NCBI GenBank assembly: GCA_963842525.1
Contig: CAWJGT010000003.1
Span: 1,408,001-1,472,000, forward strand
Direction: 5' to 3'
From: an uncultured Holophagales bacterium
Lineage (GTDB): Bacteria > Acidobacteriota > Thermoanaerobaculia > Multivoradales > UBA5704
DNA: 64,000 nt
Shown: positions 12,593 through 52,367 of the stretch, piece after piece
Position numbering within the stretch: position 1 is the stretch's first letter
Layout of the letters: the number at the start of each line of letters is the position of its first letter
The notes under the pieces: model-generated
What the model saw: only the letters and a program-made list of their open reading frames with translations
What the model was told of the DNA's origin: nothing
Database searches by the model: none
Position numbers and translations under genes: made by a program

Positions 12593-15038
12593 TTAAGTCT
12601 TCGGCACCAGCTTCAGGACGTTGACCGGCTTTCCGGGCAGGAACCGCGTTGGCCGCCCATCCTGCCAATCGGCGTGACCATCTCGATAGTGGGGCGAGAG
12701 CGGATGAGCGCTCTGACCGACCGGCATGTGGAAGATCCCGGTCTCCTCGTGTCCCGGAGAGACCACCATCCGCTCCGAGGCGCTGAAGATTGGGCTGGCG
12801 ACCCGCGGCATGTCCAGGTCACCCGGGACCGGCTGCGGCGGCACGTCGAGCCAGTGGGCGAGCAGCGGTATCGAATAGCTCAGCGGGTGCCGGACCTCCT
12901 GCATGTTGCGTTCGCCCCAGGTCCGGTCGGCGAGGTTGGGCCCGAATTTGCGCAGGTCGTCGACCGCCCAGTCGGAGACGGCGAGGATCTGCTCGTCCCA
13001 GCTCCTGTAGCGGGGATCGAGCAGATGGGCCGGGCGTTCCGTCACCAGTCGCCAGAGCGGCGCGTCGAAGCGCCGCCGCGCCCGATACCACGGCAGGCTG
13101 GGCTCTTCCTTGAGGCCGGTCAGGCTGGCGAACACCCGCTTTTCGAGCTCATCCCGGAACTTGCGCACCACCCGGTAGGCCACCGAATCGATCGACGCCC
13201 GGCCGGTCCAGGTGGACACCAGGATTCGCCGCAGCTCGCCGCGCCGCGGATCGGCCTTGATCGCTTCCGGCGTGAGCGTCTTGAGCAGCAGACCGTGCCA
13301 GCGCGCCACGAAGAGCGCCCGATCGTCGAGTTGGAGGGCCAGCATGTCATTCGATGTGGCCCGCTCCAGGCTGAGCAGGCGGTCGCGGATCTGCATCGCG
13401 CGCGGCCCCAGGTCGTAGCAACCGTCCCCCAACCGCGCCAGCATCTCGCCGTCGACGGCCCGGTTGTTGGCCGACCAGATCCGGCCGGACGGAGGATCGA
13501 CCACCTTGGGGACTTCGTCCGAGCGCAGCAAGCCGTCCCAGCGATGAGAGCCATCGGCCCAGGAGCCGGGCACCTGACCGCTCCAACCGATGCGCCGCGG
13601 CAGCTTGCCGATGATCGTCCAGCCGATCCGTCCGGAGGCATCGGCGACGATGAAGTTCTGCGGCGGCAGGCCGCTGGCGTGCGCGATTTCGATCGCCTCA
13701 TCGACATTCTTCGCCGTCTCCAGGCCGAGGATCTCCAGGTTCGTCGCCTCCGGGAGGTCGGCGGTCCAGGCGATGGCGCGCCGCGGGCGTCCCTTCCCGT
13801 CCCGCCCGTCCCGGCTGACGACCGGACCCCAGATCGTCTTCACCACGTCGAACGTCTCTTCGGGCCCGTCTTTGACCAGAATGCGCTCGGTGTGGTGCTC
13901 GAAGCGCCGCGGGCCGTCAGGCGTCCGGTAGGCCTCGGGGTCGTGTGGATCGAGCTCGAGATCCACCAGGTCGATGACGTCGGCAAAGCTGTTGGTGAAG
14001 CCCCAGGCGATCCGCCCGGTGCTCCCGACGGCGAGCACCGGCATTCCCGGCAGCGTCACGCCGGTCACCCGCCGCTCGGCCCCGTCGGGCTCCCGCCAGG
14101 TCCAGGAGGCCCGGTACCAGACGTTGGGCACATCGATCCCGAGATGCATGTCATTGGCGAGCAGAGCATGGCCGTCGGCGGTGTGGGCCCCGGAGACCGC
14201 CCAGCCGTTGCTGCCCTTGCCGTCGAGCTGCCCGCTGCCCGTCCACCACCCGGACAGGGTTTCAGCCGCGCCCGGCCGGGACAGCGCGGCTGCCTTCGCG
14301 GCCCGCGGCTTCCGGAGGTCGAGGACGTCCGGACCGGGGATCGGAGGGGTCGGGAAGGCGTCGCCGACGAGCGGCGCATCCCATTCGGTGCCCACCGGCT
14401 CCACGAAGTCGAAGACCTGCGCCGGCACCCGGTCGTGGATCTGCCCGAGCTCCGCCTCGACGCGCCCCCGCGAGTCCTGGAGGTCGAAGTACATGGCATA
14501 GACGGCAAGGAGGCTGTCCTCAGCTCTCCAGGGCCGCGGCTCGGCGCGCAGCAGGATGTACTCGAAAGGCTTGTCGCCCAGCGACTTCAGGCCGGCGTTG
14601 ACCCCTGCCGCATAGGCCTCCAGGAGGGCACGGTGGAGCGGCGTCATACCGGCCAGGACACGGCCGGCCAGGCTGCGAAAACCGTGCAGGCGGCGTTCCT
14701 GGTCGAACTGCACCAGGTTCGGTCCCAACAGCTCGGCGTTCTCTCCGGCCGCCGCCCGCCGCAGCAGATCCATCTGGAAAAAGCGGTCCTGCGCGTGGAC
14801 GAAACCCAAGGCCCGCGCGGCGTCCAGCCGGGTGGCGGCCCTGATCGTCGGCACTCCCAGAGCGTCCCGTTCGATCGTCACCGGCGCCTGGAGCCCCGGG
14901 ATGGCGAGCGCCCCGGAGCTGGGGCAGGCTGGCCACCACCCGGTGCCGCAGCCAGAGGCCGCCGCCCAGCAGTATGAGGAGCAGCACCCCCACCAGCAGG
15001 AGGAGCCAACGGGCGATCCTGCGCTTCCCTCCGGTCAT
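12593..15038 (-). CDS. Penicillin acylase/PvdQ-family Ntn hydrolase with N-terminal membrane anchor; indel near 14909
   Basis: GFVHAQDRFFQMD, GSNGWAVSG (beta-chain Ser), ANDMHL, WSANN, GQSAHPLSPHY; hydrophobic N-terminus lies in the adjacent frame. Confidence 0.9.
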
Positions 15039-15985
15039 TCGGCCGCATCCTGCCCGGCACCGTGCCCCAGGCGCTGGAGCTTGCGCCGGCGCCGCTCGCC
15101 GCGCTCCCGGACCGCGTCGTAATTCCTGGGTGGGCCGCTGTGGAGGAGCAGCCTGGTCAGGGCGCTCACCGTCGGTCCCTCATACAGACGGACGGTCGGA
15201 ATGTCCTGGTGCAACCATTCCTTGAGCACGGCGATGATCCGGACCCCGGCGATCGAAGTCCCCCCGAGCTCGAAGAAGTTGTCGTCGACGCCCACCCGGC
15301 CGAGGCCGAGCTCCTCCTGCCAGAGGCCCGCGATCGCCGCCTCCAGGCGATTGGTGGACGGCGCATACTCGGTGGCGAGCTCCGGGCGCTCGCGGACCGG
15401 TCCGGGCTCGCCCGCCGTCTCCGCCCCCTCCGACGCATCGCGCCGAGCCCGGGGGACCGCCGCCGGGGGCGGCTCGAGCGCGTCGACTGCCGAGCCGAGG
15501 ATCACCGCCAGAATGCGGTCGCCGTCCGCCAGAGCCTCGGGCAACCGCTTGAGCACCACGACTCCCATCCCCTCGCCGCGCACCGGCGTCTCGCCCGCAA
15601 GCGCCAGATCGCACTCCCAGGCATGCAGGCTCTGGCAGGCACGCTCGACGGCCGCGAACGCCGCCGGGCCGGGGACGGTGACCGCCGGCCCGCGCAGGCC
15701 GAGCTCGCCGGCCACATCGGCCGCCAGGCTGTCGCCCTCGTCGCCGCGGAGGCCGCGAAGGAAGACGCCGCTGCGGTCGGCATCCATGCGAGTGGCATAG
15801 GCCGCGTCCTCGAGCGCCTCCTTCGCACCGTCGAGGAAGAGCCGCGCCTGGCTGATCCAGGGCTCGCGGTGGGGATCGTCGGCGGTCGGTCCCACATCGC
15901 CACAGAGATAGCGCCAGAGAGACTCGATCGTCGGCTCACCGGGGAACCTCCCAGCCAAGCCGATAATGGCAGTGACATCAGCCAC
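15035..15985 (-). CDS. Degenerate N-terminal KS fragment fused to an ACP with a basic C-terminal tail
   Basis: IIGLAGRFPG, ACQSL...ECDLALAG and GEGMGVVVLKRL retained; no catalytic Cys or His; ACP motif DNFFELGGTS; tail RERGERRRRKL. Confidence 0.8.
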   Translation of the reverse strand: MADVTAIIGLAGRFPGEPTIESLWRYLCGDVGPTADDPHREPWISQARLFLDGAKEALEDAAYATRMDADRSGVFLRGLRGDEGDSLAADVAGELGLRGPAVTVPGPAAFAAVERACQSLHAWECDLALAGETPVRGEGMGVVVLKRLPEALADGDRILAVILGSAVDALEPPPAAVPRARRDASEGAETAGEPGPVRERPELATEYAPSTNRLEAAIAGLWQEELGLGRVGVDDNFFELGGTSIAGVRIIAVLKEWLHQDIPTVRLYEGPTVSALTRLLLHSGPPRNYDAVRERGERRRRKLQRLGHGAGQDAAE

Positions 15986-16874
15986 GTTGTTCCTTTCGCC
16001 CGACAGGGCTGTTCAGTGGCCCTTCTCGAGCTTCCCAGATCCGGTAGCTGAGACGGCCCTCCTGGAGGTCGTGGTAGGGCTTCGAGCCGGGAGTGGCCAG
16101 GAAGAACTCCATGACCTCCTGGCTGGCCGGTGCGTCGTGGACCTCGAGGTTTCGCGCAGCATAGGAATCGAGCGAGAGGAGGACGTTGGGGGTGATGTCC
16201 TGGTCGCGCTTGAGGGTCAGACCGAGCCCGCGGAGGCAGGACCTGTAGCTCTCCATGTGCTCGACCGGCATGAGGTCGGTGTACAGGAAGCGCCCGCCCG
16301 GGCCGAGCACCCGGGCGACCTCGCGATAAAAGGCGTAAATATCAGGATATAGACAGGAGGACTCCACATTCATGACCACATCGAAGAAGCCGTCGAGGAA
16401 CGGCAAGCGCTCGGACTCGCCATTGACGAAGTAGATATCCGGATTCTTGATCCGCCGCCGACAGAACAGGACGGCGCTCGGCGAGAGATCCAGCCCCCAG
16501 ATCTCCCCGGGAGTGAAAAAGCGATCGATCGTCAGGATCGTCCCGCCACGGCCGCAACCGATGTCGAGGATGTCGCAGTCGTTGAGATCGCAGTCGCCGA
16601 TCAGCTCGAGGACGAGGTCGATGCGGTTGCGGTTGGGCCAGTGCGGGGGCAGTTGGATCTGCGCCGAACGCGGGCGCCCATCGGGCAGGTAGCCGAAGTT
16701 GAAGAAGGTGGCGTCGTCGGCGTAGATGGACTCACTGAGTGAGTCGTTGATCTTGTCGTAGAAGGATTGGACTTCTTGTTTTTTCTGTCGCGCAACAGAG
16801 GCAGGCAGCACTGCATCCGGCGCGCGTCCGGAAAACAGATTCTCGAGGTCCCTCGGGTGGTCCCCTACGTCCAT
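15978..16874 (-). CDS. Class I SAM methyltransferase resembling fatty-acid/phthiotriol O-methyltransferases
   Basis: FFNFGY, ILDIGCGRGG, FDVVMNVESS, LGPGGRFLYTD; GAAGGAG ribosome-binding site. Confidence 0.85.
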   Translation of the reverse strand: MDVGDHPRDLENLFSGRAPDAVLPASVARQKKQEVQSFYDKINDSLSESIYADDATFFNFGYLPDGRPRSAQIQLPPHWPNRNRIDLVLELIGDCDLNDCDILDIGCGRGGTILTIDRFFTPGEIWGLDLSPSAVLFCRRRIKNPDIYFVNGESERLPFLDGFFDVVMNVESSCLYPDIYAFYREVARVLGPGGRFLYTDLMPVEHMESYRSCLRGLGLTLKRDQDITPNVLLSLDSYAARNLEVHDAPASQEVMEFFLATPGSKPYHDLQEGRLSYRIWEAREGPLNSPVGRKEQRG

Positions 16875-16932: not shown

Positions 16933-19900
16933 TCAATCTGACTCGCGTCCGTCCTCGACGGCGGCGAGAGCGCTCTCCAGATGCTCCACCAGTTGATCGA
17001 GGGCCGGCCTCTGGAGCAGGGTCACGTGGTCAGCATCCCGGATGAGATGAGCTTCGGTCCTGGCAAGCTGCGCCCAGCCCGACGTGAGATCCGTGGCCCC
17101 CGGAGCCAGCGAGGCGTCGGCCCGGAAGATGGTCACCCGACCGCCGTAGGGGCGCGGCAGGTAGCTCTCCACGGTTTTCATGGTGCGGCGGTACAGCTCG
17201 AAGCGCTCCCGCAGCCACGGCTTTCCCAGGTCCGGAGCCAGCCCCCCCTCCCGCGCCAGCTCGAGCAGACGGTCGAGGCCGGCCTCCACGTCCAACCCTT
17301 GCAGCATTTCGCGAATCAACAGCCTCTGCTCCTCGGAAGGACGCCCGAGCCGTGCGAAAGCGATCAGGAGCCCGGTGTCATCGACGGCTTCGAGTCGCCC
17401 ATCCGGTGGTGACCCTGGGTCGAACATCGTCAACAGCGACGTGGTACCGCCCGTGCTCTCGATCTGCCGTGCCATCTCGTAGGCTGTGATGGCGCCAGAC
17501 GACCAGCCGGCCAACAGCCAGGGTCCCTCGGGCTGGACCTCGCGCACCGTCACCAGGTATTGCGCCGCCAGATCCTCCATCGATGGCGGATGACCGTTGC
17601 CGTCCCCGACCGCTTGCAGGCCGTAGACCGGACGCTTCGCCCCGAGCCTCTTCGCCAGCTCCACGTAGGAAAAGACGTCTCCTCCCACCGGATGCATCAG
17701 GAACAGCGGCCTCCCCGCTCCTCCCGGATGCAGACGCGCCAGCGGCGAACGCTGCACAGGCCCCTTCTTGATCACAGCCGCCAGGTGTTCCACCGTCGGC
17801 GCCTCGAACAGCGCCGAGATCGGCACCTTGACCCCGAAGACGCGCTCGATGCGCGCCATCACCTGAACCGCCAGCAGCGAGTGGCCGCCCAGGTCGAAGA
17901 AATGACTGTTCGCTCCGACCCGTTCCAGGCCGAGCACGTCGGCCCAGATGCCGGCGACGAACTTTTCGACCGGCGTCCGCGGCGCCACATAGCTCTCCTC
18001 GCCGCCCTGCTGCTCGGGAGCCGGCAGGGCCTTCCTGTCCACCTTGCCATTGGGCGTGAGCGGCAGCGCCGCGAGCGGCACGAACGCGGCCGGCACCATG
18101 GAGTCCGGCAGCCGCTCGCGTAAAGAGCGACGCAGCACGTCGGCCGCGACGTCGCTCACGACATAGGCCACCAGCCTCCGGTCGCCAGCCCCCCTTTCGA
18201 GGGCGTCCTCGCGCTCCTCCACGACCGCCGCGCGCACTCCGGGCAGCGCGACCAGAGCCATCTCGATTTCACCCAGCTCGATGCGGACGCCGCGGATCTT
18301 GACCTGGTGGTCGGTGCGGCCGAGGAAAAGGATCGTGCCATCCTGCCGCTGGCGGACGAGGTCGCCGGTGCGGTAGAGGCGGGCGCCGGGCACCGCGGCA
18401 AAGAGGTCTGGAACGAAACGCTCCGCCGTCAGGTCAGGGCGGCCGAGATAGCCCCGCGCCAGCCCGGCGCCGCCCGCACACAGCTCGCCCGGCACGCCGA
18501 GAGGCACGGCCTGGTGCAGGCGGTCCATGATCCGTAAACGCACGTTGTCGAGAGGCCGGCCGAGAGGCGTGATCGCCGAGACCTCGCCGGACCGGCACGG
18601 GTGGAACGACACGTCGATGGCACACTCCGTGGGGCCGTAGAGGTTGCACAGCTCGATACCGGGCAGGCGCTCTAAGGCCCGCTCGCAGAGCGACGCCGGC
18701 AAGGCCTCGCCGCCACAGAACAGGAGCCGCAGTGGAGCGCCGCGCAGATCCTCGTCCAGGAACAGGCCGAGGATGGAGGGCACGAGCTGCAGCACGGTCA
18801 CGCCCCGTTCCCGCACCTCGCGCGCCATCACCGCCGGCTCCCGGTGCGCATCCGGCGGCGCCAGCACCAACCGCGCCCCGGTACACAGCGGCAGGAAGAT
18901 TTCCCAGATCGCCGGGTCGAAGACGTGCGTCGTCTTCTGGAGCACGGCGTCAGCTTCGGTCAGTGGGAAGGCGCGCTGCATCCAGAGCAGGCGGTTGGCG
19001 ATGGCGCCGTGCGAGACCAGAACGCCCTTGGGACGGCCGGTCGAGCCCGAGGTGTAGATTACGTAGGCGAGGTGGTCCGGCGAGATCGAGACCTCCAGCG
19101 ATGCCGTGTCATCGCCCGCCAGGTCCGCGAGATCGAGGGTGCGGTCATCCTGGAGCAGCTCCGGAGGGGCACCCGGCCCGGCAATCACGACGGCCGGCCT
19201 GGCGTCGTCCAGCACGGCAGCCATCCTTGCGGCGGGGTACTCCGGGTCCAGGGGCACCCAGGCGGCGCTGGCCTTCCACACCGCGAGCAGGCTCACCACC
19301 ATCTCCGGCGAGCGTTCACAACAGACGGCAACGCGATCTTCGGGCCTCACGCCCCGGCGGATCAGGAGGCGAGCCAGCCGGCTCGCCTGCGCTTCAAGGT
19401 CTCCGGCGGTGAGAGCACGGCCTCCTTGTTCCAGGGCGGTCCGTTCCGGCGCACGCGCGGCCTGCGCCGCCACCAGAGTGGAGAGGACCGGCACGGCGCC
19501 GTGTTCCACCGCTGTGTCGTTCCACTCCACCTGGACCTGCTGCTGCTCCGCCGCGCCGAGCAACGGCAGCTCCCTCGCCCATCGGTCTGGTGCTTCTACG
19601 GCCGCGGCCAGCAGGCGCTCGAAGCTCCCGGCGAGGCGGTCGATGGTCGCGGCGTCGAACAGATCGGTGGCATAGTCGAGCCGGCCGGCCAGCTCGCCGT
19701 CGTCCTCGCCGAGGCTGAGCGTGAGATCGAACCTCGCCATCGCCTCGGTCCCACCCAGCGGCCGCAACCGCAGATCCCGGATCTCCAAGCTCTCGACGGG
19801 AGCGTTCTGCAGCGCGAACATCACCTGGAACAAGGGCGTGTGCGCGAGGCTCCTCTGGGGCGAAAGCTCCTCGACCAGTTTTTCGAACGGCACGTCCTGA

Positions 19901-20905
19901 TGCAGGTAGGCCGCCAGCGCCCTCTTCCGTGCCCTCCCGAGCAGCTCGTGGAACGACGGGCCGCCGGCCCTGTCTCCAGCCCTGCCTCCAGGCAGGTTTC
20001 CACTCAAATCGCCGCGCAGCACCAGCATATTGACGAAGAACCCGATCAGCCCCTCGATCTCCGCCCGGTTGCGGCCGGCGACGGGCGAGCCCACGGCGAG
20101 ATCGTCCTGTCCGCTGATGCGCGCCAGGAGGGCCTGGAAGCCAGCCAGGAGCACCATGAAAAGTGTCGCTCCCTCGCGCCGGGCGAGAGCCGCCATCTGC
20201 TGGGTGAGGCCGGCCGGCAGCCGCACCGGCCAGGAGGCGCCACGTGAGCTCCGCCGGGCAGGCCGCGGCCGGTCGGTCGGCAAGTCCAGCAGCGGCGGCA
20301 GCCCTGCAAGCTCCTGGCGCCAGAACGAAATCTCCTGCTCCAGGACCTCGCCGTACAGCCAGGAACGCTGCCAGACCGCGAAATCCGAGTATTGCACCGC
20401 CAGCTCGGGCAAGGGTGACGGCTGGCCGGCGGCGAAGGCCGGATAGAGCACCCTGACCTCGCGCACCAGGACACCCATGGACCAGCCGTCGCTCGCGATG
20501 TGGTGCATGGTCAGCGCGACGACGTGGTCGCTCGCTGAGAGGCGCAGCAACACGCCGCGCAGCAATGGACCGCGCGCGAGATCGAACGGCCGGCCGGCCT
20601 CGTCTGCGGCCAGGGTGAGCGCCTCCGCCTCGCGCTTTCCCTGGGGCAGGCCTGACAGATCCACCACGGGCACCGGGAACGGCGCGGCCGGCTGGATCAC
20701 CTGGACCGGCGAGCCGTCCAAGCCCTCCAACACTGAGAAGACCGTGCGCAGCGCCTCGTGGCGGTGCACGATCTCGCTGAGAGCGCCCGCCAGCACGCCG
20801 GGGTCGAGCGGCCCTTCGACCCGTAGGGCCACCGGCAGGTTGTACAGCGGGCTGTCCGGATCGAGCTGATCGATGAACCAGAGGCGCTGCTGGGCGAAGG
20901 AGAGG
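16933..20905 (-). other. NRPS module 10, C-A(Gln-like)-T-TE
   Basis: Code DPWQFGLIDK (TycC Gln code is DAWQFGLIDK); TE motifs [16 protein letters not shown]. Confidence 0.7.
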
Positions 20906-23900
20906 GGCCGCGGCTCCTCCGATCCGCCGGCCCGCGGGATGATCGCAGACGGCGCAGACGGCGCAGACGGCGCCGGACGCTCATAGCCGAGGCGTGCGGC
21001 CATCTCCCAGGTCGGCTCACCGAGGGAGTCTGACTGCGCCTCCCGGGAGCGCTCGGCAACCCCCGCCTCGACGCCTTTGTATTGGAGAAACTTCACATCC
21101 CCGAGCATCTTTCCCTCGGCGTGGATGCCATCCGTCATCCGCGCCCGTCCCTCCTGATAGGGATTGACCATGGCGGGGTCGAGCTCGAGCCCCAAGGCGT
21201 CGCAGAGTTTCCGCAGCTCGGCTTCAGGGTGGCGCACCAGGTCCTCGAAACGGATGGGGATCTGGCGTTCCGCCGGCACATCGGCAAGATGCTCCAGGAT
21301 ATTCGCGTGGCTCGCCTGCCAGATCAGCTCGGCCAGCTCGGCCCGTTCGAACGTGTGGGGGTGACGGAAGAACAGCTCGTCGAGCTTGATCTCGTCGAAC
21401 GAGCGGATCGAGGCGTAGGGATGGCGCAGGAGATGAATATAGAAAGGTTTTTCAAACGCTTGCTCGGCCCGCCTCAGGACGGCCAGGTCGAGCGCATAGG
21501 TGGTCGTCTTATCGACCAGGGTCCGGCCGCCCAGCCACTCCTGGAGCTGGCGGTAGAAGCGCTGCGTCGTCCAGCCTTCCTCAACGGCGGCACCGACGAT
21601 CTGCCGCGCCTCCTCGACGCCGCACTGGCGCACCTCCATCACAGCGCGGATCAGACCCTCCAGCCAGAAGCTGTCGCGGCCCGGGAACGCGGCCTCGCGG
21701 TCGGCCATGGTGTTGAACGAGAGCAGCTCGAGCTCCGGGGGCGCGAAAAGCTGCGGATGGCCACCGAGCATGACGCGCAGGAGCGTCGAGCCCGCTCGCG
21801 GCGGGGAGAGGATGAAGATCGCGGGCGGGTTCTTCTCCGCCGCCAGATCCTTGGACTCCGGCAAGGGGGGGATCACCGAGCGGAAGGCGGCGATCCGGGC
21901 CAGGTCGACGCGGCCGGCCGCCGCTCGCGGCGCGCGCGCCACCTCCGCGCCGAGCGACACCTCGCCCCAGAGGCGGACGACGGTCTCCCGCTGCTCGCGC
22001 GCCAGGTAGGCTGCCATCTTCGCCACCGTGGGGGCGTCGAAGAGGACGACGACGTGGATGACCCCGCTCATCTCCCGTTGCAGCCGGTTCATCAGGATCG
22101 CGCCGGTGATCGAGTTGCCGCCGAGATCGAAAAAGGAGTCGTGGATGCCCACGCTCTCCAGGGCGAGCGCCTGGCACCAGAGGCCGGCCAGATACTCTTC
22201 GAGCGGCGTCCGCGGCGCGGCGGCCTCCGCCCCAGCGGCGGGCGCCTCCGGATCGGGCAGCGCCCGGCGGTCGACCTTGCCGTTCGCGGTGCGGGGGAAG
22301 GTCGCGACGGGCACGAAGACCGCCGGGATCATGTAGCTCGGCAGGCGGTCCTGGAGGTGGCTCCGCAGGCTGGCGACGAGGTCCGGGTCCGCTTTGCCGG
22401 CGGTCACCCAGGCGACCAGGCGCTGCGCGGTCCCCGCGCCGCGCAGGTCCACCACCGCCTCCTGGACGGCGGGATGCTCGGCGAGGACCACCTCGATCTC
22501 CCCGAGCTCGATGCGGAAGCCCCGCACCTTGACCTGATGATCGATCCGGCCGAGGAACTCGAGCGCGCCCTCCGTCCGCCAGCGCGCCAGGTCGCCGGTC
22601 CGATAGAGCCGCGCGCCCGCGGCGGCTCCCCCCTCTGTTTCAGACACCGGGTTCGGCACGAACGCCAGGGCGGTGCGCGCCGGATCGCCGAAATAGCCGC
22701 GCCCCACACCCTCGCCCCCGATGCACAGCTCGCCCGGTACGTCCAGGGGTTGCGGCTGGAGGTCCCGGTCCAGGACGTAGAGCTGCATGTTGGCCACCGG
22801 ACGGCCGATCGCCGGGCGCCAGGCCGGGTCGGCCGGCACTTCCCGGATCGGACTGAAGCTGACGTCGTCGGAGCACTCGGTGGGGCCATAGGCGTTGAGC
22901 AGCGGAATGCCGGGATGACGGGCGAGCCAGCGCCGGCAGAGCTCCGGCGGCAGGGCCTCGCCGGTGGGGATCAGCCAGCGCAGGCGCGACAGGTCGTGAA
23001 CGCTCCCCTCCTCGCCCCCGTCCATGATCTCCAGCATCGCCACCAGCAGCGAGGGGACCAGCTCTAGCACCGTCACTCCGTCGCGCACCACCGCGGCGAG
23101 CAGCGCCGCCGGATCGTGGGCGACCGCGTCCGGGTAGATGGCGACGCGGCCTCCAACAGCCAGGGCTGACAGCATCTGCCAGACGGAGATGTCGGAGCTC
23201 TGGGCGGCGTTCTGCGCCACCGTGTCCGCGTTCGTGAGGCCGAACACCTCCAGAGTGATCAGCGTGTGGTTGGTGAGGCCCCGGTGGGGGATCATCGCGC
23301 CCTTGGGCAGCCCGGTCGAGCCGGAGGTGTAGAGGACGTAGGCGAGATGGTCGAGCCCGGCTCGCACCGGCTGTGGCGCCGCCTCGCCGTCCAGGCATAC
23401 CAGGTCCTCCAGCTCCAGAATCTTGAGGAACGGCGGCGCGTCCGGCTCCGCCGCGAGCAGTTGCGGACCCAGGCCACCGCCCGAGAGAAGCAGGCGGGAC
23501 CCGCTCTGGCGCAGCACTCCCAGGGCCCGCGCGGCAGGGTGCTGGGGATCGAGCGGAAGATAGGCGCCGCCGGCCTCGAGAACCGCGAGAACCGCGGTCA
23601 CGAAACCCAGGCCGCGCGGGGACAGGATCGGCACCACCGATTCGGGTCCCACACCGTGGCCGACCAGCACCGCCGCCCAGCGGTGGGTGCGGCGCAGGAG
23701 CTCGCGGTAGGTCAGGCGCTCATCGCCGTAGACGGCGGCCACTGCTTCCGGCGTCCTCTCCGCCTGTGCCGCAAACAGATCCTGAAGGCAGACGGCGGGG
23801 GCGACGAATTGCGAGTCGTTCCACTCGCAGAGGGTCTGGTGGCGCTCGGCCGCGCCGAGGAGGAGCAGAGCGGAGAGATTCCTCCCGGGATCGGCCAGCG

Positions 23901-26900
23901 CCGCCGCGAGCAGGGCCGCGAAGCAATCGCACAGGCGGGCGATGCGCGTGCCGTCGAAAAGATCGCTGTTGTATCGCCACTGGCAGGACAGCCCCCCGTC
24001 GGCCTCGGTGGCGTTGAGTACCAGATCGAACTTGGCTGTGGCGGAGCCAGACTCCATCGGCCGGAGGCGCAGGCCGGGCAGCTCCAACACCCCCATAGGG
24101 GCGTTCTGGAGCACGAACAGGACCTGGAAGACCGGGGAATGGCTGAGGTCGCGCTCCGGGGACAGGTCGTCCACCAGCTTCTCGAACGGGAGATCCTGGT
24201 GGGCGTAGGCGCCCAGGGTGACCTCCCGAGTCCGCCCCACCAGCTCGCGGAAGGACGGATCGCCGGAGAGATCGGCGCGCAGCGCCAGGGTGTTCAGGAA
24301 CAGGCCGATCAGCGGCTCGGTCTCGGCGCGGTTGCGGCCGGCGATCGGCGAGCCGACGACCAGGTCGAGCTGGCCGCTCAACCGGGAGAGCAGGGCCGAG
24401 AGGGCGGCGAGCAGAATCATGAACGGCGTCGCGGCGGTCTCCCTCCCCAGCTCCGCGGCGCCCTGGAGTGGCAACTGTTGGAGCTGCGACCGGCCGCGAT
24501 AGCGCTGCACCGCCGGGCGCGGCCGGTCGGCAGGCAGCGCGAGGAACGGCGGTGCTCCGGCGAGGCTCTCGCGCCACCAGCCGAGCTGGGCCGCGAGGGT
24601 TTCGCCCTGAAGCCGCTGCCGTTGCCACACCGCAAAGTCCGCATACTGCACCGGCAGCTCCGGCAGCGGGGAGGGCTGGCCGGCGGTGAAGGCGGCGTAA
24701 AGTGCCGCCACCTCGCGCACCAGGATGCCCATGGACCATCCGTCGCTCGCAATGTGGTGCACGGTCAGCGCAACCACCTGATCGCGGTCTGCCAAGCGCA
24801 ACATCACGCCGCGCAGCAGGGGCCCGCGCGCGAGATCGAACGGTCGGGAAGCCTCTTCGGCCGCCAGCGCGGAGGCCAGAGACTCGCGCTCCGGAACCGG
24901 CAGTCCCGACAGATCCACCACCGCCAGCGCGAACGGCACCGCCGGCTGGATCACCTGCACCGGCGCGCTCTCCTGCACGGCAAAGACCGTCCTCAACGCC
25001 TCGTGACGGCGCACGATCTCGCCGAGGCAGAGAGCCAGCGCCGCAGAGACGAGCGGCCCTTCGACACGCAGCAACAGCGGCATGTTGTAGAGCGGGCTTC
25101 CCGGCTCAAGCTGATCGAGGAACCAGAGCCGCTGCTGGGAGAAGGACAGAGGCAGGGGTTTCTCCCGGGGCACCCGGACGAGCGGCGGCACGGACACCGG
25201 TTTGGCTGTTTGCAGCGCGGCCTCGACGCGGGCGGCGAGGTCCGCCAGCCGCGGTGCTTCGAAAAGGACACGCACCGGCAGCTCGACGCCCAGAGCACTG
25301 CGGAGACGGGATATCACCTGGGTCGCCAGCAGGGAGTGGCCCCCCAGGTCGAAGAAGTTGTCATTGGCTCCGGCCTCCCGTTCGAGGCCCAGCAGATCGC
25401 CCCAGGTGGCGGCGAGGATCTGTTCGACCTCGGTGCTCAGAGGCACCGCGTCGCCCACCGGCTCGGAGCGCAGCGTTTCCGGTGCGGGAAGAGCAGCGCG
25501 GTCCACCTTGCCATGAACGGTCAGAGGCAGGCGGTCCAGGAGCACGACGGCCGAGGGGATCATGTACTCCGGAAGCTCGCCTTGCAGGAAGCGGCGCAGC
25601 TCCGGCACCAGGCGCCGCGCCACCTTGTGGCGCAACGGATCGTTGGCGTAGGCGTGCGCCGGCAACCCCGCGCGCTGCCTCGGTGGCGAGGGCACCGCCA
25701 CCCCATCGGCACCGAGCCGCAGCACTGCGGCAAAGCGGTATGGATCCCTGGGATCCCAGGTCAGGCCGACCGAATAGCCGAGCTGCTCGCCGAGCTGCCA
25801 CAGCTCCTCGGGATCGATCGCTTCCGCGGAGGCCGCGCGTTCCGCGATCACCTGCCGCAGCTCCCCCACCGTCCCCCCCTCGGATCCGACCCCCTGGTCG
25901 AGCCCCGCCAGGAGCGTCACCGCCGCCGCTTCGACGGCGAGCCGACGGTTGGGGATCGCCGTCAAGGCCAGCGTCCGCGGACCAGCCTCCAGCCGCTCGG
26001 CCAGCTCGGAGAGCGACAGGTTTTGTGCCTGCCAATCGAGCCAGTCGAGAGCGTCGTCCGGCTCTTGCAGCGCGCCGACATGGAGCACGGCGTCATAGCG
26101 GAAACGGCTCAGCTCGTTGTGATACCGGCCGCGCTTTACCAGGATCTCGACGTGCCGGATCTCCGGCAATCGCCGCGCCAGGGCGAAGAAGAAGCCGGGG
26201 TCGACCAGCAACTCCTCCTCGGTCGCCAGACGCCGAAGAATGCGCTGCCGGAGATCCGCCACCGGGAGATCGTCCGCCGAACGGTACAGCTCGACCGAGG
26301 TCTGGAGCGATTCGAGGAGTGGCAGGCTGCGCAGGTCGCCAAGGAAGACCCGGCCGCCGTGAGCCACGCTCGCGACCGCCCCTTCGACGACACGGATGAG
26401 ATAGTCGATCCCGGGGAAATACTGCGTCACCGAGTTGAGGACGACTGTGTCGAAGTCCCCCGCGGCCACACCGCTCCAGTCGTCTGCCGTCCGGCATTCG
26501 AGGGAGACGCCCGGCAGACCGCCTGTCCGCTCGATCTGTCGGCGGATTCCTTCCAGGGCGACAGACGAAAAGTCGGTGCCTTGATAGATCTCTGCGTGCG
26601 GCGCCACCCGGAACAGCAGCAGGCCGGTACCACAGCCGACCTCCAGTATCCGGCGTCCGCCGAGAGCGAGCACTCGTTCTACCGTCCGGTCCACCCACTC
26701 ACGCATCTCCTCGGCAGGGATCGGAGCGTCCGTGTAGCTGCTGTTCCACCCTTCGACGTTGAAGGTGGCGTCGACCTCGATCCCAGTGGGTTCTGAGGCG
26801 CCGTAGGTCTCGTCGTAGAGAACCTGCCAGGCGGCGATATGCTCCGCATCGGCGGCTGCCTCCGACAGCATGCAGCGCACCACGTAGGCCACCAGACGCT

Positions 26901-29900
26901 TGCCCGACGGATCGTCCTGCACGGCGGCCACCGCCTCGCGCACTTCCGGATGGCGGCCGAGGGAGCTCTCCACCTCCCCCAGCTCGATGCGGAATCCGCG
27001 CACCTTGACCTGGTGGTCGAGACGGCCGAGAAACTCGATGTTGCCGTCGGCCAGGCGCCGCACGCGGTCACCGCTGCGGTAGAACCGCTCACCGCCGCAG
27101 AGGACGTACTTCTCCGCGGTCAGCTCGGCGCGGCCGAGATAGCCGCGCGTGACGCCCCGGCCGCCGATCCACAGCTCGCCCGGCACGCCGATGGGCAGCA
27201 GCTCTCCGTCCGCGCCGCGACCGTTCCGAACATCGAGCACGGCGCCAGCCAAGGGCCGGCCGAGCAGCGGCCTCGCCGGTTCGGGAGGCGGCGGCACCGG
27301 GTGCGCGGTGCACAGGATGGTCCCTTCGGTCGGCCCGTAGAGCACCCAGACTCGCGCGGCTGGGAAGGTCTCTCGCAGATCCTCCAACAGCTCGCCAGGA
27401 ACGGCGTCGCCGCCGACGAACACCGCGCGCAGTCTTTGGATATCAGCGCCCCGCCGGCGAATCGCGTCGACGACCTGCCGCATCAACGCCGGCACGGCGT
27501 GCAGACAGGTCATCTCCCCGAGACGGTCAGCCAATCCCTCCACATCCAACGTCGGCCGCAGCGGGAAGAGCACCGCCGTGCCGCCGCTGAGCAACGGCGA
27601 CAGCAGCTCGAAGAGGAAGATGTCGAACGTCGAACTCGCCAGGCAGGGCATGCGGTCGCCTGTTCCAAAACCGAACAAGGCCCGGGTGGCGGCGAGGGTG
27701 GCCGCGAGCATGCCGTGCTCCACCTGCACCGCCTTGGGCCGGCCCGTCGTGCCGGAGGTGTAGATCAGATAGGCGAGGCTGTCCGCGGCAGGCAGGCCGA
27801 GAGGCTCGTCCCCGTCGCCCTCCAGCTCTTCCAAGAGAAGAATTTCTCCACCGTACGGCGGGAGGCTCGGGAGAAGGTGCCGCTGAGTGACCAGCAGCAG
27901 GACCGCCGCATCCTCCAGCAGGAAAGCGACGCGCGCCCGGGGATGCGCGGGATCCAGGGAGAGCCAGGCGCAACCGGACTTGAGGATGGCCAGCACCCCT
28001 ACCACCAGGTCCGGGGTGCGTTCGACGCAAAGCCCCACTACCACTCCCGGTCCGGCTCCCAGCGCGCGCAGGCTCCGGGCCAGCCGGTCCGACCGGCGGT
28101 CGAGCGCGCGGTAGGTGAGGCTCGCCTGCTCGTCCCCGGCAAGAGCCACCGCCACAGCCTCGGGGGCGCGGCGCGCCTGCGCCGCGAACAGCTCGATGAC
28201 ACCCGGTGCGGCCGGAACGGGCGTGTCGTTCCACTCGGCACGGAGCTGGTGGCGCTCGCCGTCCGACAACAGCGGAAGATCCTGGAGGACCCGGCCAGGA
28301 TCGGCCGCACCCGCCGCGAGGAGCGTCGTCAGATGGCCGGCGAGACGCAGGATCGTGGCGGCATCGAAAAGATCGGCCGTGAAATCGAGCCGGCCTCCCA
28401 GCTCTCCGTCGGCCTCCGTGAAGGTCAACCCCAGCTCGAATTTCGCCGTCCCCGCATCCCGCAAGGAAGAGGTGATCGACAGGCCTTCCAGGTCGACCCT
28501 TTCGTACGGAAAGTTCTGCAGCGCGAACATCACCTGGAACAGGGGCGTGTGTGCGAGGCTCCTCTCCGGGGCGAGATCCTCGACCAGCCTTTCAAACGGC
28601 ACGTCCTGGTGCATGTAGGCCGCCAGCGCCGTCTCGCGCACCCGGCCGAGCAGCTCCCGGAACGACAGCTTTCCTGTCACTTGACCGCGCAGCACCAGAG
28701 TGTTGACGAAGAACCCGATCAGTCCTTCGATCTCCACGCGGTTGCGCCCCGCCACCGGCGAGCCGATCGCGAAATCGTCCTGGCCGCTCACGCGCGCCAG
28801 GAGAGCCTGGAAGCCGGCCAGGAGCACCATGAACAGCGTCGCTCCCTCGCGCCGGGCGAGAGTTTCCAGAGTCCGCGTGAGCCCGGCCGGAACCCACACA
28901 GGGCAGGTGCCGCCGCGGAAGCTCTGCACCGCGGGACGCGGACGGTCGATGGGCAGCTCCAGCACCGGCGGCAGGCCCGCGAGCTGCCGGCGCCAGAAGC
29001 CGATCTCCTCCTCCAGAACCTCGCCATGCAACCAGGAGCTTTGCCACAGAGCAAAATCCGCATACTGCACGGACAGCTCCGGGAGCGGCGACGGCACATT
29101 CTGGGCGAACGCTGCATAGAGCGTCGTGGCCTCGCGCACCAGGATACCCAGCGACCAGCCGTCGCTCGCGATGTGGTGCATCGTGAGCGCCGCCACGTGC
29201 TCCGCTTTTTTCCCAGAGCCATCGAGCCGCAGCAGCACGCCGCGCAGCAGCAGATCGCGCTTGAGATCGAACGCGCGGCCGGCCTCGTCTCCCACCAGAA
29301 CGGGAACCAGTTTTTCGCGTACGGCTTCCGGCAATCCCGACAGGTCGACCACGGGCAGCGCGAACGGCGCCGCTGGTTGGATCACCTGCACCGGCGCGCC
29401 TTCCAGGCCCTCTGACACCGCAAAAACCGTCCGCAACGCCTCGTGGCGGCGCACGACCTCACCGAGGCAGAGCGCCAGCACGCCACGATCCAGTGGCCCC
29501 TCGACGCGGAGCGCGATGGGGATGTTGTAGAGCGGGCTGCCCGGTTCGAGCTGATCGATGAACCAGAGACGCCGCTGGGCGAACGACAGCGGCAAGGGCT
29601 CTTCCCGGGGGAACGGAAGCAGGGGCGGAGCGATCGCCGTGGTACCGGCCCGCATCGCCTCGACCCGGGCGGCGAGGTCCGCCAGCCGCGGAGCTGTGAA
29701 GAGATCGCGCAGAGGCAACTCGACGCCGAAGGCGCTGCGCAGCCGCGACACCACCCGGGTGGCCAGCAGGGAGTGCCCTCCCAGATCGAAGAAGCTGTCC
29801 GTCGCTCCGACCTGTTCGCGACCGAGCAGCTCGCCCCAGATGCCGGCAACGACCTCCTCGACCGGCGTCCGCGGCGCGACGAACGCTTCGTCAGAGCTTC

Positions 29901-32900
29901 TGCCACTCCGGAGCCGGCAACGCCTTCCGGTCCACCTTGCGGTTGGGCGTCAACGGCAGCTCGGCGAGAAGCGTGAAGGTGGCCGGCACCATGAACTCCG
30001 GTAACCGCTCGCGCAGGAAGGAGCGCACCTCAGGCACCGCCAAGGTGATCCCGGCGGCCGGCACCAGGTAGGCCGCCAGGAAGCTTTCCGGTCTCACCAC
30101 GACGACCGCCTCGCGGACCCCCGGGAAGCCGCCGAGCACCGACTCGATCTCCCCCAGCTCGATGCGGAAGCCGCGGATCTTCACCTGCGTATCGGCCCGC
30201 CCGGCGAACACCGCTTCGCCGTTCGGCAGATAGCGTCCGAGGTCGCCCGTCCGATAGAGATCGGCTGCGAAGCGCTGAGAGGTGAGCTGCGGATCGCCCA
30301 GATATCCAAGGGCGATGTGCGGGCTCCGCACCGAAACCTCGCCCATCTCGCCGATGCCGGCCAGCCCGCCGCCCGGGTTGAGCACCAGGAGCTGGACGTC
30401 CGGAATACCGCGGCCGAGCGGCAGGATCTCCCGCGGCTCGCGGTCGTCGGCAACGTGGTAGCCGACGGCGCGTTGCGTCTCGGTGGAACCGTAGTAGTTC
30501 ACGCAGGTGACGTTCGGGGCCAGCGAGCGCAGCCGCGCCACGTCACGGCGGGTGAGGACATCCCCCACCAGGAACGCATAGCGCAGTGACGGGACCTCAA
30601 GGCTGAGGACACCGAGATCACCCGGCGCTTCGGTGGTCAGCACCTGACCCAGAGCGGGCGTGAGATGGGTGATCGTCACCGCCGCACGGCGCATCCAGGC
30701 GGCGAGCGCGCCCGGATCGTCCATCGTTTTCGGATCGGGGATCACCACCGCAGCGCCGAGCTGTAACGGAGTGAACAGGTCGCGGTGCAGCGGATCGTGC
30801 GCCAGGCCCGACAGCATGCTGAAACGGTCGGCGGCCGACAGATCAAAGCGCTGGCGCAGCCACGGGATGAAATGCGACAGCGAGCCGTGGCGGCCGAGCA
30901 CCCCCTTCGGCACGCCCGTCGAGCCGGAGGTGAACGCCACATACGCGGTGTCGTCCGGTCCGATCTCCACGGGCGCAGGAGCTGCCGGGAAAGCCGAAAG
31001 GACATCCATTTCCCCGGCATTGTCAGCCTTCGCCGGCAGGGTCAGGCGGCAGGAGCAACTGAGAGCGTCGAGAGCGCCGTCGATCTCCACCGGGACCGGA
31101 CCGGCCGCCGCGACGCGGAGCCAGGCGGCTGGCCGCGCGATCTCCAGCATCTGGGCCTGGCGCGCCGCCGGATAACGAGGATCGAGCATCAGGAAGGTGG
31201 CCCCTGCCTTGAGAGCTCCCAGCACGCCCCAGACCAAAGGCGCGCTGCGGTGAGCCCAGAAGGCCACCACGTCCCCGCGCCGCACGCCACCCGCCTGGAG
31301 GAACGCGGCGAGCCCGTCGGAGCGCTCGTCGAGCTCGCCGTAATTCCAGGACTCCGCCGGATCCGCCGCCGCGAGCGCCCCGGGGTCTCGTCGGGCATGG
31401 CGGGCGAAGATCTCGTGGACCGCGCCCTCCCAGGCTGCCGACAGCTCCGCGGCCGGATCGGGCAGCAGCTCACGCGACGCGGCGGTGACCAGTGCGTGCC
31501 GCCCCACCGGCTCCTCCGGCCGCTCCAGCGCCTGCTCCAGGAACAGCGCGAGCTGGTCGAGCAGGTCCTCCATCCGCGCCGCGTCGAACAGGTCGGCGTT
31601 ATAGACCAGGTTCACCTGGACTCCGCCGTCTCCTTCGCTCAGATAGAGCGTCATGTCGAGCTTGGAGAGAGGCGCCGACGGCGCCATCCCCGCCCCGTCC
31701 AGCTCCAGGCCAGGGAGGCGCATCGCGGCGGTCGGTACGTTGACCAGGTTGACCATCACCTGGAAAAGCGGCGTCCGTGAAAGGTCGCGCTGCACGGGGA
31801 GGGCCGCGAGGACCGCTTCGAAAGGCACGTCCTGATGAGAATAGGCACCGAGGGTGACCTCCCGCACCTGCTCCACCAGACTGCGGAAGCCAGGCTGGCC
31901 GCCGAAGCCGGTGCGCAGGACGAGCGTATTCAGGAAGCAGCCGATCAGCTCCTCGGTCTCTACCGCGCGACGACCGGCCACCGGCGCGCCCACCAGGATG
32001 TCATCCTGACCGCTGTGGCGGTGCAGCAACGTCTGGATCGCGGCGAGGAGCGTCATGAACAGCGTGGCGCCGTGGGAGCGGCCGAACCGGGTCAATCGCC
32101 CTGTGAGCTCGGAAGAGAGGATGCGCGCGGCACCCCCGCCGCGATAGGTCTGGACGGGCGGCCGAGGGCGGTCGATCGGCAGATCGAGCGGCGATATCTG
32201 CGATGTCTCGCCGCCCAGGAGATCGAGCCACCAGGCGAGCTCCTCCTGCCGCGTTCCCGCGACCAGCTCGCGCTGCCACACCGCGAAGTCGGCGTATTGC
32301 ACCCGCAGTTGGCCGAGAGACGACGGACGATTCTCGGTGAAAGCGCCGTACAGCTCGCCGATCTCGCGCACCAGGAGCTGGAGCGACCAGCCGTCACAGA
32401 CCACGTGATGCACCACCATCAGGAGCTGGTGGCGCTCGGGTTCGAGCCGCAGGAGCGCCGCGTCGAGCAGCGGCCCGCGCGCGAGATCGAAGCGGTGCAG
32501 CGCGTGCTCCGCGGCGAGCCGCTCCGCCTCCGCCAGACGCCCGGCGCCCGGCAACGCCGCCAGGTCGACGACCGGCAGCCCAATCTTCAGGTCTGGCAGG
32601 ATGTGCTGGCGGGGGACGCCGTCCACCACCTGGAAGACCGTGCGCAGCACCTCGTGGCGCTCCACCAGACCGCGCAGCGCAGCGCCGAGCGCGGCTCTGT
32701 CGAGACGACCGATGAGCCCGACCTCGCCGGGCATGTTGAAGGTGGGCTCCCCCGGGTCGATGCTGTCGAGGAACCAGAGGCGCTCCTGTGCGAACGACAG
32801 CGGCAGGGGACCTTCCCGGGAGACCGCAACGAGCGGCGGAGCCGCCGGTGCCTGACCGCCGCGCCGGGCCTCCTCGACGACCGCCGCCAGCTCCGCCACG

Positions 32901-50900: not shown

Positions 50901-52363
50901 TGTCGCTCGCCCGCAGCGAGCAGCGGGAGCTCCGAAAGACGCTTGCCCGGATTCGCCACGACTCCGGCCAGCAGGCCTACGAAATGCCCCGCCAGGCGCT
51001 CGATCGTCGCGCTGTCGAACAGGTCGCAGCTGTACTCCAGGCGGCCGAGCAGGGTGTCCCCCGACTTCTCGAACCGGCAACTGAGATCGAACTGCGCGGT
51101 CGCCAGGTCGAGGATGGCGGGCTCTACGGTGAGCCCCGGAACCTCCAGCTCGGACGCCGGCGTGTTCTGCAGCACGAACAGGACCTGGAACAGAGGGTTG
51201 TAGCTGAGGCTGCGCTCCGGCCGCAGCTCCTCGACCAGTGTCTCGAAGGGGAGCTGGCCATGGCTCTGGGCTTCCAGAACCTCATCGCGGACGCGGCCGA
51301 GCAGGACTCGGGCCGAAGGGTTGCCGGACAGGTCGACACGCAGCACGAGGGTGTTGAGGAAGAACCCGATCAGTCCCTCGATGTCGCTGCGGTCGCGGTT
51401 GGCCACCGGGTAGCCAATCACCAGGTCCTGCTTCCCGGTATAGCGCCCGAGCAGGGCGAGGAAGGCGGCAAGGAGGGTCATGAACAGGGACACCCCCTCC
51501 CGCCGGCTCAACCGGCCCACGCTCTGCGCCAGCTCCGCGGGCAACACGAGGAGCCGCGTCGCTCCGCGATCGCTGCGCATCGCCGGCCGGGGGTGGTCGA
51601 ACGGCAGCTCCAGCACCGGATCGGCCCCTGCCAGCTTGGCGCGCCAGTGAGCCAGCTCCTTCTCCAGCACAGCTCCCTGGAGCCACCCCCGCTGCCAGGC
51701 GGCGTAGTCCGAGTATTGGAAGGGGAGATCCAGCAGGGGGGACCGGCCACCGCGGAGGAAAGCGCCGTAGAGCGTCCACACCTCGCGGACCAGCACGCCG
51801 AGCGACCAGCCATCGGCGATGGCATGGTGAAGCGTCAGGACGGCCTTATGCTCGCGGCGATCCAGCCGCAGCAGAAGGACGCGCAGCAGGGGCCCCGCGT
51901 CGAGGTCGAAGGTGCGGCGTGCCTCGGCCAGGATCAGATCCCCGGCCAATTGCGACGCTTCCGCCGCGGGCAGGCCGCTCAGGTCGACCAGCGGCAGGAG
52001 GAGCGGCCCCGGTGCAGAGATGCTCACCCATGGCTCGCCGCCAAGCTCGATGAACGTGGTGCGGAGCGTCTCGTGACGCCGCGTCACCTCGGTCAGGGCG
52101 CGGCCGAGGACCTGGATGTCGAGCGCTCCGGCGAGGCGAACCTCCACGGCGATGTTGTAGAAAGGACTCTCCGGCTCCAGGCGCTGCAGGAACCAGAGAC
52201 GCTGCTGGGCGAACGAGAGCCGGCGGTTCCCAGGGCCCTGGAGAGGAGTGATCGGCGGCTCTCCCTCCAGATCGATCCCCTCCTCGGCGAGGAGGACAGC
52301 GAGCATCTCCCGCTGCTCTGCGGAGAGACCCACCGCCGCGCCCAGACGCTCGATCTCGCTCAA
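16933..52363 (-). CDS. 10-module NRPS of about 11,800 aa: (C-A-T)x7, C-A-NMT-T, C-A-T-ST, C-A-T-TE; split by indels near 50262, 36735 and 29899
   Basis: Four ORF-track pieces join at conserved motifs ([34 protein letters not shown]); ten C, A and T motif sets; TE GWSSG; TTG start after GGGAG. Confidence 0.9.
20980..25155 (-). other. NRPS module 9, C-A(Dab/Dap)-T-sulfotransferase
   Basis: Code DIWEITADDK; ST motifs [30 protein letters not shown]. Confidence 0.8.
25210..29595 (-). other. NRPS module 8, C-A-N-methyltransferase-T, substrate uncertain
   Basis: Code DIFHFGLILK; NMT motifs [27 protein letters not shown]. Confidence 0.7.
29650..32805 (-). other. NRPS module 7, C-A(LYS2-like)-T, predicted Aad/Glu
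   Basis: [37 protein letters not shown]. Confidence 0.7.
32860..36030 (-). other. NRPS module 6, C-A-T, Pro-like scaffold with atypical pocket
   Basis: [10 protein letters not shown] motif; code DAHITTHVAK. Confidence 0.55.
36100..39275 (-). other. NRPS module 5, C-A-T, predicted Ile/Val
   Basis: Code DAFFLGLTFK. Confidence 0.65.
39350..42500 (-). other. NRPS module 4, C-A-T, predicted Ala
   Basis: Code DLFNNALTYK. Confidence 0.75.
42580..45850 (-). other. NRPS module 3, C(HHIAFNG)-A-T, predicted Dab/Orn
   Basis: Code DVGEVSSIDK, close to the polymyxin Dab and tyrocidine Orn codes. Confidence 0.65.
45950..49070 (-). other. NRPS module 2, C-A-T, predicted Ile/Val
   Basis: Code DAFFLGVTYK. 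Confidence 0.7.
49130..52230 (-). other. NRPS module 1, C-A-T, predicted Gly
   Basis: Pocket code read by eye: DILQLGLVWK. Confidence 0.75.
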
Positions 52364-52367
52364 GTCG

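Follow-up and report, generated by a model that had tools for sequence, protein, structure and literature searches.

What does a sulfotransferase (ST) domain do in the middle of a non-ribosomal peptide synthetase (NRPS), where a further condensation domain follows it? This question is raised by a stretch of 64,000 nucleotides from an uncultured Holophagales bacterium of the Acidobacteriota (assembly GCA_963842525.1, contig CAWJGT010000003.1, positions 1,408,001 to 1,472,000), which is called the window here and which has a G+C content of 68-73%. On its minus strand, from 59918 down to 16933, the window encodes a long hybrid line of polyketide synthase (PKS) and NRPS modules, consisting of KS-AT-ACP and 11 NRPS modules, and the ST domain belongs to module 10. 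To our knowledge, sulfonated non-ribosomal peptides are rare, and the on-line sulfonations we know of are confined to chain release (CurM and olefin synthase, OLS), to a loading unit (cyanopeptolin) and to the trans-acting monobactam enzyme SulN. We propose from the sequence, with a confidence that stands about midway between belief and disbelief, that the ST would use 3'-phosphoadenosine-5'-phosphosulfate (PAPS) to sulfonate in cis the beta-amine of a carrier-bound 2,3-diaminopropionate (Dap), which would be followed by one extension and by release through a Ser-type thioesterase (TE).

The borders of the domains were drawn with own hidden Markov models (HMMs), built on the seven paralogous modules of the genome, and a Pfam search was run alongside. 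The open reading frame (ORF) at 16933..29754 (minus strand) gives a stop-free translation of 4273 aa, in which Pfam recognizes three Condensation, three AMP-binding and four PP-binding domains, an embedded methyltransferase, a Thioesterase and a Sulfotransfer_3 domain. Their order is carrier-domain remnant, C-A(methyltransferase)-T, C-A-T-Sulfotransfer_3 and C-A-T-Thioesterase (C, condensation; A, adenylation; T, carrier domain). The ST covers the full Sulfotransfer_3 profile (PF13469, residues 2644-2860 on profile positions 1-216, E 3.6e-28), which bears out an earlier note on this DNA that had described an ST embedded mid-line between T and C and the PAPS-binding loop SPPRAGST. The interval given there, 20980..25155, encloses exactly one C-A-T-ST module (20983-25152 with our HMMs), and the ST indeed lies directly after an A-T pair with a diamino-type code; the module is number 10 in our count and not, as had been stated, number 9.

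A search of the PDB aligned ~280 residues of the domain with the STs of CurM (4gbm, 6.6e-57) and OLS (4gox, 7.8e-57), and the relatives beyond these were tyrosylprotein sulfotransferases (TPSTs, ~1e-06). An AlphaFold2 model of the ST (7-sequence alignment, pLDDT 71, pTM 0.70) led Foldseek to the same proteins, 4gbm (TM 0.79/0.82) and 4gox at the top and then TPSTs. Both by sequence and by fold, the domain is a CurM/OLS-type sulfotransferase. It has an intact loop for the 5'-phosphosulfate of PAPS (PPRAGST, pattern PRxGST) and retains Glu in PPELELL and Lys in VDKT, residues with catalytic roles in the CurM ST; of 249 ST domains, the window's among them, 248 keep the Glu (PPELxL) and 248 the Lys (VDK). 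Compared with four orthologs (L016-L019), to which the ST is 81-86% identical, dN/dS amounts to 0.15-0.25 for the ST, 0.28-0.48 for the A domain and 0.30-0.35 for the following C domain, and these ratios indicate that the ST is under purifying selection. The genome also encodes an APS kinase.

The carrier in front of the ST differs from ordinary carriers. Among the database proteins, the core GGHS occurs in 289 of 341 carriers that precede a C domain and in 10 of 302 that precede an ST, where GGNS, GGDS, GGSS or GGTS stands in its place; judged by this motif, the carrier before an ST is a subtype of its own. The window shows the traits of such a T*-ST-C cassette, namely a non-GGHS carrier, an ST ~50-60 residues behind it, then a C domain, and an A domain with a code for a side chain bearing a hydroxyl or amino group. 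One paralogous cassette of the genome (L011:2809-5463, G000:C19) reads C-T-ST-C with no A domain directly upstream, and the carrier of the module preceding it is also of the ST-coupled subtype (GGSS).

The choice of A domains before the ST is narrow. Nine pocket residues per A domain were read by alignment to the A domain of module 10 (A10), with the usual GrsA numbering and the usual substrate names for the codes. All 92 full-length A domains before a T-ST in the window, six paralog loci and 76 further loci fall into only five code types (53 Thr-type, DFW[NS].G[ML]VH; 15 Ser-type, DVWH.SLVD; 17 Tyr-type, DA[SA]T[VI]AA[VI]C; two DLKNFGTDV; five D[IV]WEITADD), and 63 A domains of neighbouring modules without an ST include three Ser-type and two Thr-type codes, both counts coming from partly overlapping loci with some modules counted twice. 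The window and its four orthologs contribute the five D[IV]WEITADD domains. The 253 ST-coupled codes read from 255 database proteins comprise 77 of Thr type, 61 of Ser type, 36 of Tyr type, 12 of the window type, five DLKN and 62 others, versus 27, 25, 6 and 1 of the first four types and 340 others among 399 non-coupled codes; the named classes thus account for 191/253 and 59/399, respectively. A tree of 101 ST domains groups the STs by the code of the upstream A domain: the five STs of the window group form one clade (support 100), sister (support 90) to a Ser-coupled clade, and 18 rows make up the main Tyr clade (97), 16 of them labelled Tyr and two unlabelled, with one further Tyr-labelled ST elsewhere and three label changes. 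Throughout the family, the ST is coupled to A domains predicted to load residues with OH- or NH2-bearing side chains. Since most Thr-type (17) and Ser-type (17) modules in the genome of the window lack an ST, the cassette appears to be an optional tailoring step.

The module in the window is one member of a cassette family and not a singular oddity. The source genome (9.95 Mb) has 16 Sulfotransfer_3 matches, of which seven are CurM-type and mutually 52-62% identical; each of the seven is embedded in an open frame of 1888-8099 aa, which continues for at least 769 aa past the domain and has a C domain there as the next unit. When one genome per species was scanned, 553 stretches encoding ST relatives emerged, and the 76 related loci kept from it derive nearly all from metagenome-assembled genomes of Acidobacteriota (Thermoanaerobaculia, Holophagales), besides two Herpetosiphonaceae and one Pyrinomonadaceae. 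Searched against 1.84 billion cluster representatives, an ST profile gave 18066 matches at E<=0.001 and 1367 at <=1e-30, and among the best 150 of them 131 exceed 700 residues. With a word-based search, 625 proteins with lengths of 2350-7478 aa came up at <=1e-30, and their names are only generic. The sole match from a cultured organism, a 4373-aa protein of Thalassomonas sp. RHCl1 (P0007), has a TubC_N docking domain and two A-T-ST-C modules, both with the code DIPRVGHVG, presumably an Asp-like one. The source genome as a whole is very rich in NRPS genes (386 A-domain and 391 C-domain HMM matches, fragments included), with one same-strand NRPS region of more than 100 kb (C34:250000-358000).

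Which residue does A10 present to the ST? The earlier note had read its code as DIWEITADD plus Lys, which stands, the Lys being that of motif A10 (NGKVDR), and had left the substrate as 2,4-diaminobutyrate (Dab) or Dap. DIWEITADD looks like a Ser-type code in which acidic residues have been substituted; six of the genome's A domains with this type of code fall into one clade (support 100) within a group of 38 rows (support 92) that also holds Ser-type and Gln-like codes, and in genomes without the type the best match of A10 is Ser-type in six of seven. SbnA and SbnB synthesize L-2,3-diaminopropionate, and genes for both (388.4 bits at a cut-off of 349.95 and 368.2 bits at 326.9) lie side by side in the genome, outside the cluster of the window and 11 kb past an NRPS region of more than 100 kb that holds a DIWEITADD module; genes of the OCD family at C14 and C31 have no SbnA-like partner gene. 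In the source genome and 80 relatives, with calls made by the NCBIfam cut-off, SbnA exceeds the cut-off in 37 of the 40 genomes with a DIWEITADD-type A domain and in nine of the 41 in which one query did not find the type (best matches with other codes in 12, none at 1e-60 in 12, none at 1e-105 in 17). The type without SbnA over the cut-off is seen in three genomes (G012, G016, G043) and neither is seen in 32; within the family of the window alone, the split is 30/35 versus 3/13. This link is imperfect, with three plus nine exceptions among genomes that are related and not independent and with a 'not found' class that hangs on query thresholds, which counts against our reading of the residue.

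Genomic neighbourhood adds to this. In three of four further loci (L136, L137, L139), sbnA adjoins, on the same strand, an NRPS with a DIWEITADD-type A domain, and in L136 and L137 sbnB does so as well; in the fourth, L135, SbnA lies in frame behind a T-C fragment, with no DIWEITADD-type module within 8.5 kb upstream. Because the code tracks SbnA and sbnA/sbnB adjoin such modules, the former 'Dab/Dap' can tentatively be narrowed to Dap, and A10 probably loads L-Dap. The SbnA homolog of L135 (L135:8021-9484, G005:C46; 63% identical to that of the window's genome) is part of the NRPS's 3177-aa frame, where it directly follows a T domain and an incomplete C domain; Dap synthesis may thus be fused here to an assembly line.

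Taken step by step, module 10 of the 11-module line would load L-Dap on its specialised carrier, and the CurM-type ST fused behind this carrier would transfer a sulfo group from PAPS to the nucleophile in the side chain of this residue, here the beta-amine, which would become a sulfamate. Through the ordinary C domain of module 11, the chain would then grow by one residue, and the Ser-type TE would free a peptide with an internal N-sulfo-Dap. In this scheme, the atom that accepts the group, the stage of the transfer (aminoacyl or peptidyl) and the persistence of the sulfo group are inferred. In twelve proteins, a DIWEITADD-type A domain is followed by T-ST, and because the modules upstream of these twelve differ, one having the aliphatic-type code DAFFLGVTF, the module's own residue is the likely acceptor. 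Retention is favoured since Tyr and Dap cannot undergo a CurM-like elimination; Ser- and Thr-type modules may eliminate. A sulfazecin-like monobactam closure is not expected, because the TE is Ser-type (GWSSG) and the ST module is not the last one, in line with the earlier note, which had regarded such a closure as unsupported.

Several observations weigh against an internal sulfamate. The solved relatives that are closer than the tyrosine sulfotransferases are all O-sulfotransferases acting on beta-hydroxyacyl-ACP. Among the ST-coupled codes of the database proteins, 62/253 lie outside the named classes, of which ~16 look basic (DAE/DME/DVE...) and five are Gly-like (DILQ.G..W), so that in the latter modules the own residue offers no acceptor. 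Six of the seven DIWEITADD-type A domains in the window's genome have no ST, so sulfonation would be optional for this residue. Finally, the odd ST residues of the window clade (S to A inside the PAPS loop, P to T, Q to E, R to A, F to H, R to K, H to L and H to Y) were considered as a signature of an amine acceptor and rejected, since they are confined to this ortholog group, that is, to three of the 12 STs behind a DIWEITADD-type A domain. They are lineage-specific and missing in the other nine Dap-type-coupled STs, and therefore no amine-specific ST signature emerges.

The first alternative is that the sulfo group is transient and that the final product is unsulfonated, either because the group serves for leaving or activation, as in CurM, which at Ser/Thr modules would yield dehydro-amino acids, or because it acts as a protecting or pro-drug group that is later taken off. 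In CurM and OLS, the closest characterised relatives, sulfate serves as a leaving group; the hydroxyl of a beta-hydroxy-aminoacyl thioester is positioned as in the CurM substrate, 138 of the 253 coupled modules are of Ser or Thr type, and an acylase of the penicillin-amidase family encoded downstream suggests processing after assembly. However, a CurM-like elimination is impossible for the coupled modules of Tyr type (36) and Dap type (12), sulfamates leave poorly, neither a sulfatase nor a lyase was seen within the window, and the C domain behind the ST does not differ in kind from the protein's other C domains. Elimination to dehydroalanine or dehydrobutyrine was considered at first, on account of the Thr and Ser codes, and lost ground with the Tyr- and Dap-type coupled modules; a transient sulfo group in any form is considered unlikely.

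Hardly different in standing, and likewise unlikely, is an O-sulfation, in which the ST would act on a hydroxyl, either of a hydroxylated A10 residue or of another residue of the tethered peptide, such as the N-methylated one of module 9, whose code DIFHFGLIL is, in our assumption, reminiscent of hydroxyphenylglycine codes. Besides the O-specificity of all close solved relatives, the family itself lends weight to this: 174 of the 253 coupled codes specify hydroxy amino acids (Thr-, Ser- and Tyr-type), nine of the 12 STs behind DIWEITADD-type A domains share key residues with Ser/Thr/Tyr-coupled STs, and the Gly-like modules (5/253) imply that a residue other than the module's own can be the acceptor. 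The A10 type, however, tracks the Dap pathway of SbnA and SbnB, and the modules upstream of the 12 A-T-ST modules are variable, with an aliphatic-type code among them.

A third possibility retains N-sulfonation and changes the residue, which would be Dab with a sulfonated gamma-amine. The code of A10 is akin to DIWELTADDK, presumably a Dab code of the pyoverdine synthetase PvdL, and an EctB-type Dab aminotransferase is encoded in the genome and also immediately after the TE in L138, the orthologous cluster closest to that of the window; 12 of the 13 genomes (of 81) with EctB over the cut-off have a DIWEITADD-type A domain. On the other side, EctB was not found at E<=1e-100 in 28 of the 40 genomes with the A type, 37 of which have SbnA, and supply of Dab through EctB was set aside as weaker than Dap. 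The presence of EctB can be explained by module 4, because this module has a separate code, DVGEVSSID, which we take to be Dab/Orn-like. A Dab residue at module 10 is accordingly improbable in our estimate.

The integrity of the line deserves attention because of three frame jumps, near 29897, 36750 and 50270, which lie inside intact A or A-T regions and break the line up into ORFs that overlap. In a public soil run, a related strain is represented by a contig of 202 bases that spans 29738-29940 with nine mismatches and has one base fewer at 29897; without this base, the A-to-T junction reads through. No listed contig from the public runs resolves the jump near 36750, and eight soil or rhizosphere runs contained only small shares (<=0.15) of the stretch, their uncovered parts being uninformative. 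Similar split domains occur in L044, L069, L077, L079, L080 and L082 and elsewhere in the genome. The jump at 29897 and, presumably, the other two are taken as assembly indels or very recent changes. A dead domain or line, be it a pseudogene cluster or a structural remnant, to which the jumps and the S to A (PAPS loop), R to A, H to L and H to Y exchanges of the window's ortholog group (3/249 STs; the last three sites have the usual residue in 225-231 of the 237 STs behind other A types, 93-97%) might point, is very improbable given that each jump sits in an otherwise intact domain, that the related strain's contig restores the frame at 29897, that split domains are common in related long contigs and that the ST keeps its low dN/dS and its catalytic Glu and Lys.

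How does the proposed N-sulfonation of Dap compare with known systems? With the STs of CurM and OLS (4gbm, 4gox), the domain shares fold and subfamily (E 7e-57, TM ~0.8), the PAPS loop and the catalytic Glu and Lys, and, as predicted for the window, a position fused in cis behind a carrier whose tethered substrate is modified. While the former belong to an ACP-ST-TE off-loading cassette behind a PKS module that makes a beta-hydroxyacyl thioester, the ST of the window stands mid-line behind an amino-acid C-A-T module with a C domain and not a TE next, so that decarboxylative chain release is impossible there; in the window, furthermore, a Glu takes the place of the His that stands two residues past the catalytic Glu. 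The TPSTs TPST1/2, which sulfonate peptide side chains, are the next-best structural relatives (Foldseek E 3e-09, TM 0.5-0.56), but they are free-standing Golgi enzymes with ~19% identity. In reaction, the proposal resembles SulN, for which PAPS-dependent N-sulfonation of carrier-bound Dap in the sulfazecin NRPS is described (PMC11298585). SulN, however, is a separate enzyme acting in trans on the last module, whereas the ST of the window is in cis in the penultimate one, and in sulfazecin the sulfamate is used by a Cys-type TE for beta-lactam closure, whereas the TE here is Ser-type. An NRPS-embedded sulfotransferase domain is also described for the cyanopeptolin synthetase OciA of Planktothrix (PMC2533009); by this description, it is part of the loading region, together with a glyceric-acid domain, and acts on the side chain at the N-terminus, in contrast to the internal amino-acid module of the window.

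Positions of the module and of the remainder of the line are collected in the following table.

Table 1. Features of the PKS-NRPS line and of the genes behind it (window positions).
Feature	Position	Strand	Evidence or remark
C domain, module 10	23935..25152	-	own C HMM 1-408/408; Pfam Condensation
A domain, module 10 (A10; motif A3 to A10)	22261..23346	-	pocket code DIWEITADD + Lys
T domain, module 10, ST-coupled subtype	22000..22215	-	core GGNS, not GGHS
ST domain	20983..21828	-	Pfam core 21175-21825; PAPS loop 21784-21807; catalytic Glu codon 21733-21735
C domain, module 11, directly behind ST	19636..20907	-	ordinary HHxxxDG; own HMM
A domain, module 11	18028..19071	-	code DPWQFGLID
T domain, module 11	17773..17982	-	own HMM
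Thioesterase, Ser-type	16969..17712	-	GWSSG; PF00975 residues 4015-4262, E 8.5e-25
Module 9, C-A(embedded methyltransferase)-T	25231..29592	-	code DIFHFGLIL
Upstream part of the line, KS-AT-ACP and modules 1-8	29668..59918	-	own HMMs, pocket codes
A domain, module 4	42865-43968	-	code DVGEVSSID
Genes downstream of the TE	12593..16874	-	methyltransferase 15978-16874; KS fragment + carrier 15035-15985; penicillin-amidase family acylase 12593-14881

The final module, whose code DPWQFGLID we take to be Gln-like, varies among otherwise orthologous lines, the codes being DVWHVSLVD, DVWDRGMID and DAHITTHVA in L138, P0186 and P0194; this variation points to a recent swap of the module behind the ST module. 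Of the genes downstream of the TE, the methyltransferase resembles fatty-acid/phthiotriol O-methyltransferases and the acylase has a weak likeness to PvdQ, which hints at methylation and deacylation after assembly. A 610-aa ORF (10744-12576, plus strand), situated between the cluster and housekeeping genes, encodes a KS with KS-AT linker and has neither AT nor ACP; it may be a remnant or a trans-AT-type piece. At the other end, a second, divergent hybrid line with the order FAAL-ACP-C-A-T-KS-AT-ACP begins at about 60200 on the plus strand, and behind it, 7 kb past the end of the window, a free-standing fusion of Sulfotransfer_3 and SCP2 is encoded (L015:6589-8502, plus strand), which is only 26% identical to the embedded ST.

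A search of the open literature returned no paper on a T-ST-C cassette, although most subscription journals lay outside it, so that absence in print is unproven. The same search gave nothing relevant linking sulfotransferase, NRPS and Acidobacteria or Acidobacteriota, nothing on sulfated Thr or Ser in NRPSs and no paper containing DIWE[LI]T... codes. In the literature covered, NRPS-embedded ST domains appeared only for the cyanopeptolin oci cluster (PMC2533009) and in a figure legend of the SulM paper, and the remaining matches concerned sulfazecin, cyanopeptolin and CurM. We rate the enzyme family and the type of chemistry as known and, judging from sequence comparison, the modular and widespread in-cis arrangement and the putative acceptors as new.

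In a wider sense, and with a confidence that falls somewhat short of even, we suggest that soil Acidobacteriota may possess a large undescribed class of NRPS cassettes, in which a special carrier and a CurM-type ST would carry out on-line sulfonation of Thr, Ser, Tyr and Dap and would give rise to poly-sulfonated peptides, and that the cassette of the window may be the first to produce in cis a sulfamate that is kept inside the peptide chain. A portable T-ST cassette behind ordinary modules would aid the prediction and engineering of charged, sulfated or sulfamated peptides, and structure prediction would change for hundreds of clusters from uncultured soil bacteria (553 stretches; 1367 cluster representatives at E<=1e-30). 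For a common A-domain code whose substrate cannot be named confidently by current practice, the analysis also supplies L-Dap as an assignment open to testing. If true, the proposal would extend SulN-type chemistry from beta-lactam closure to a stable pharmacophore.

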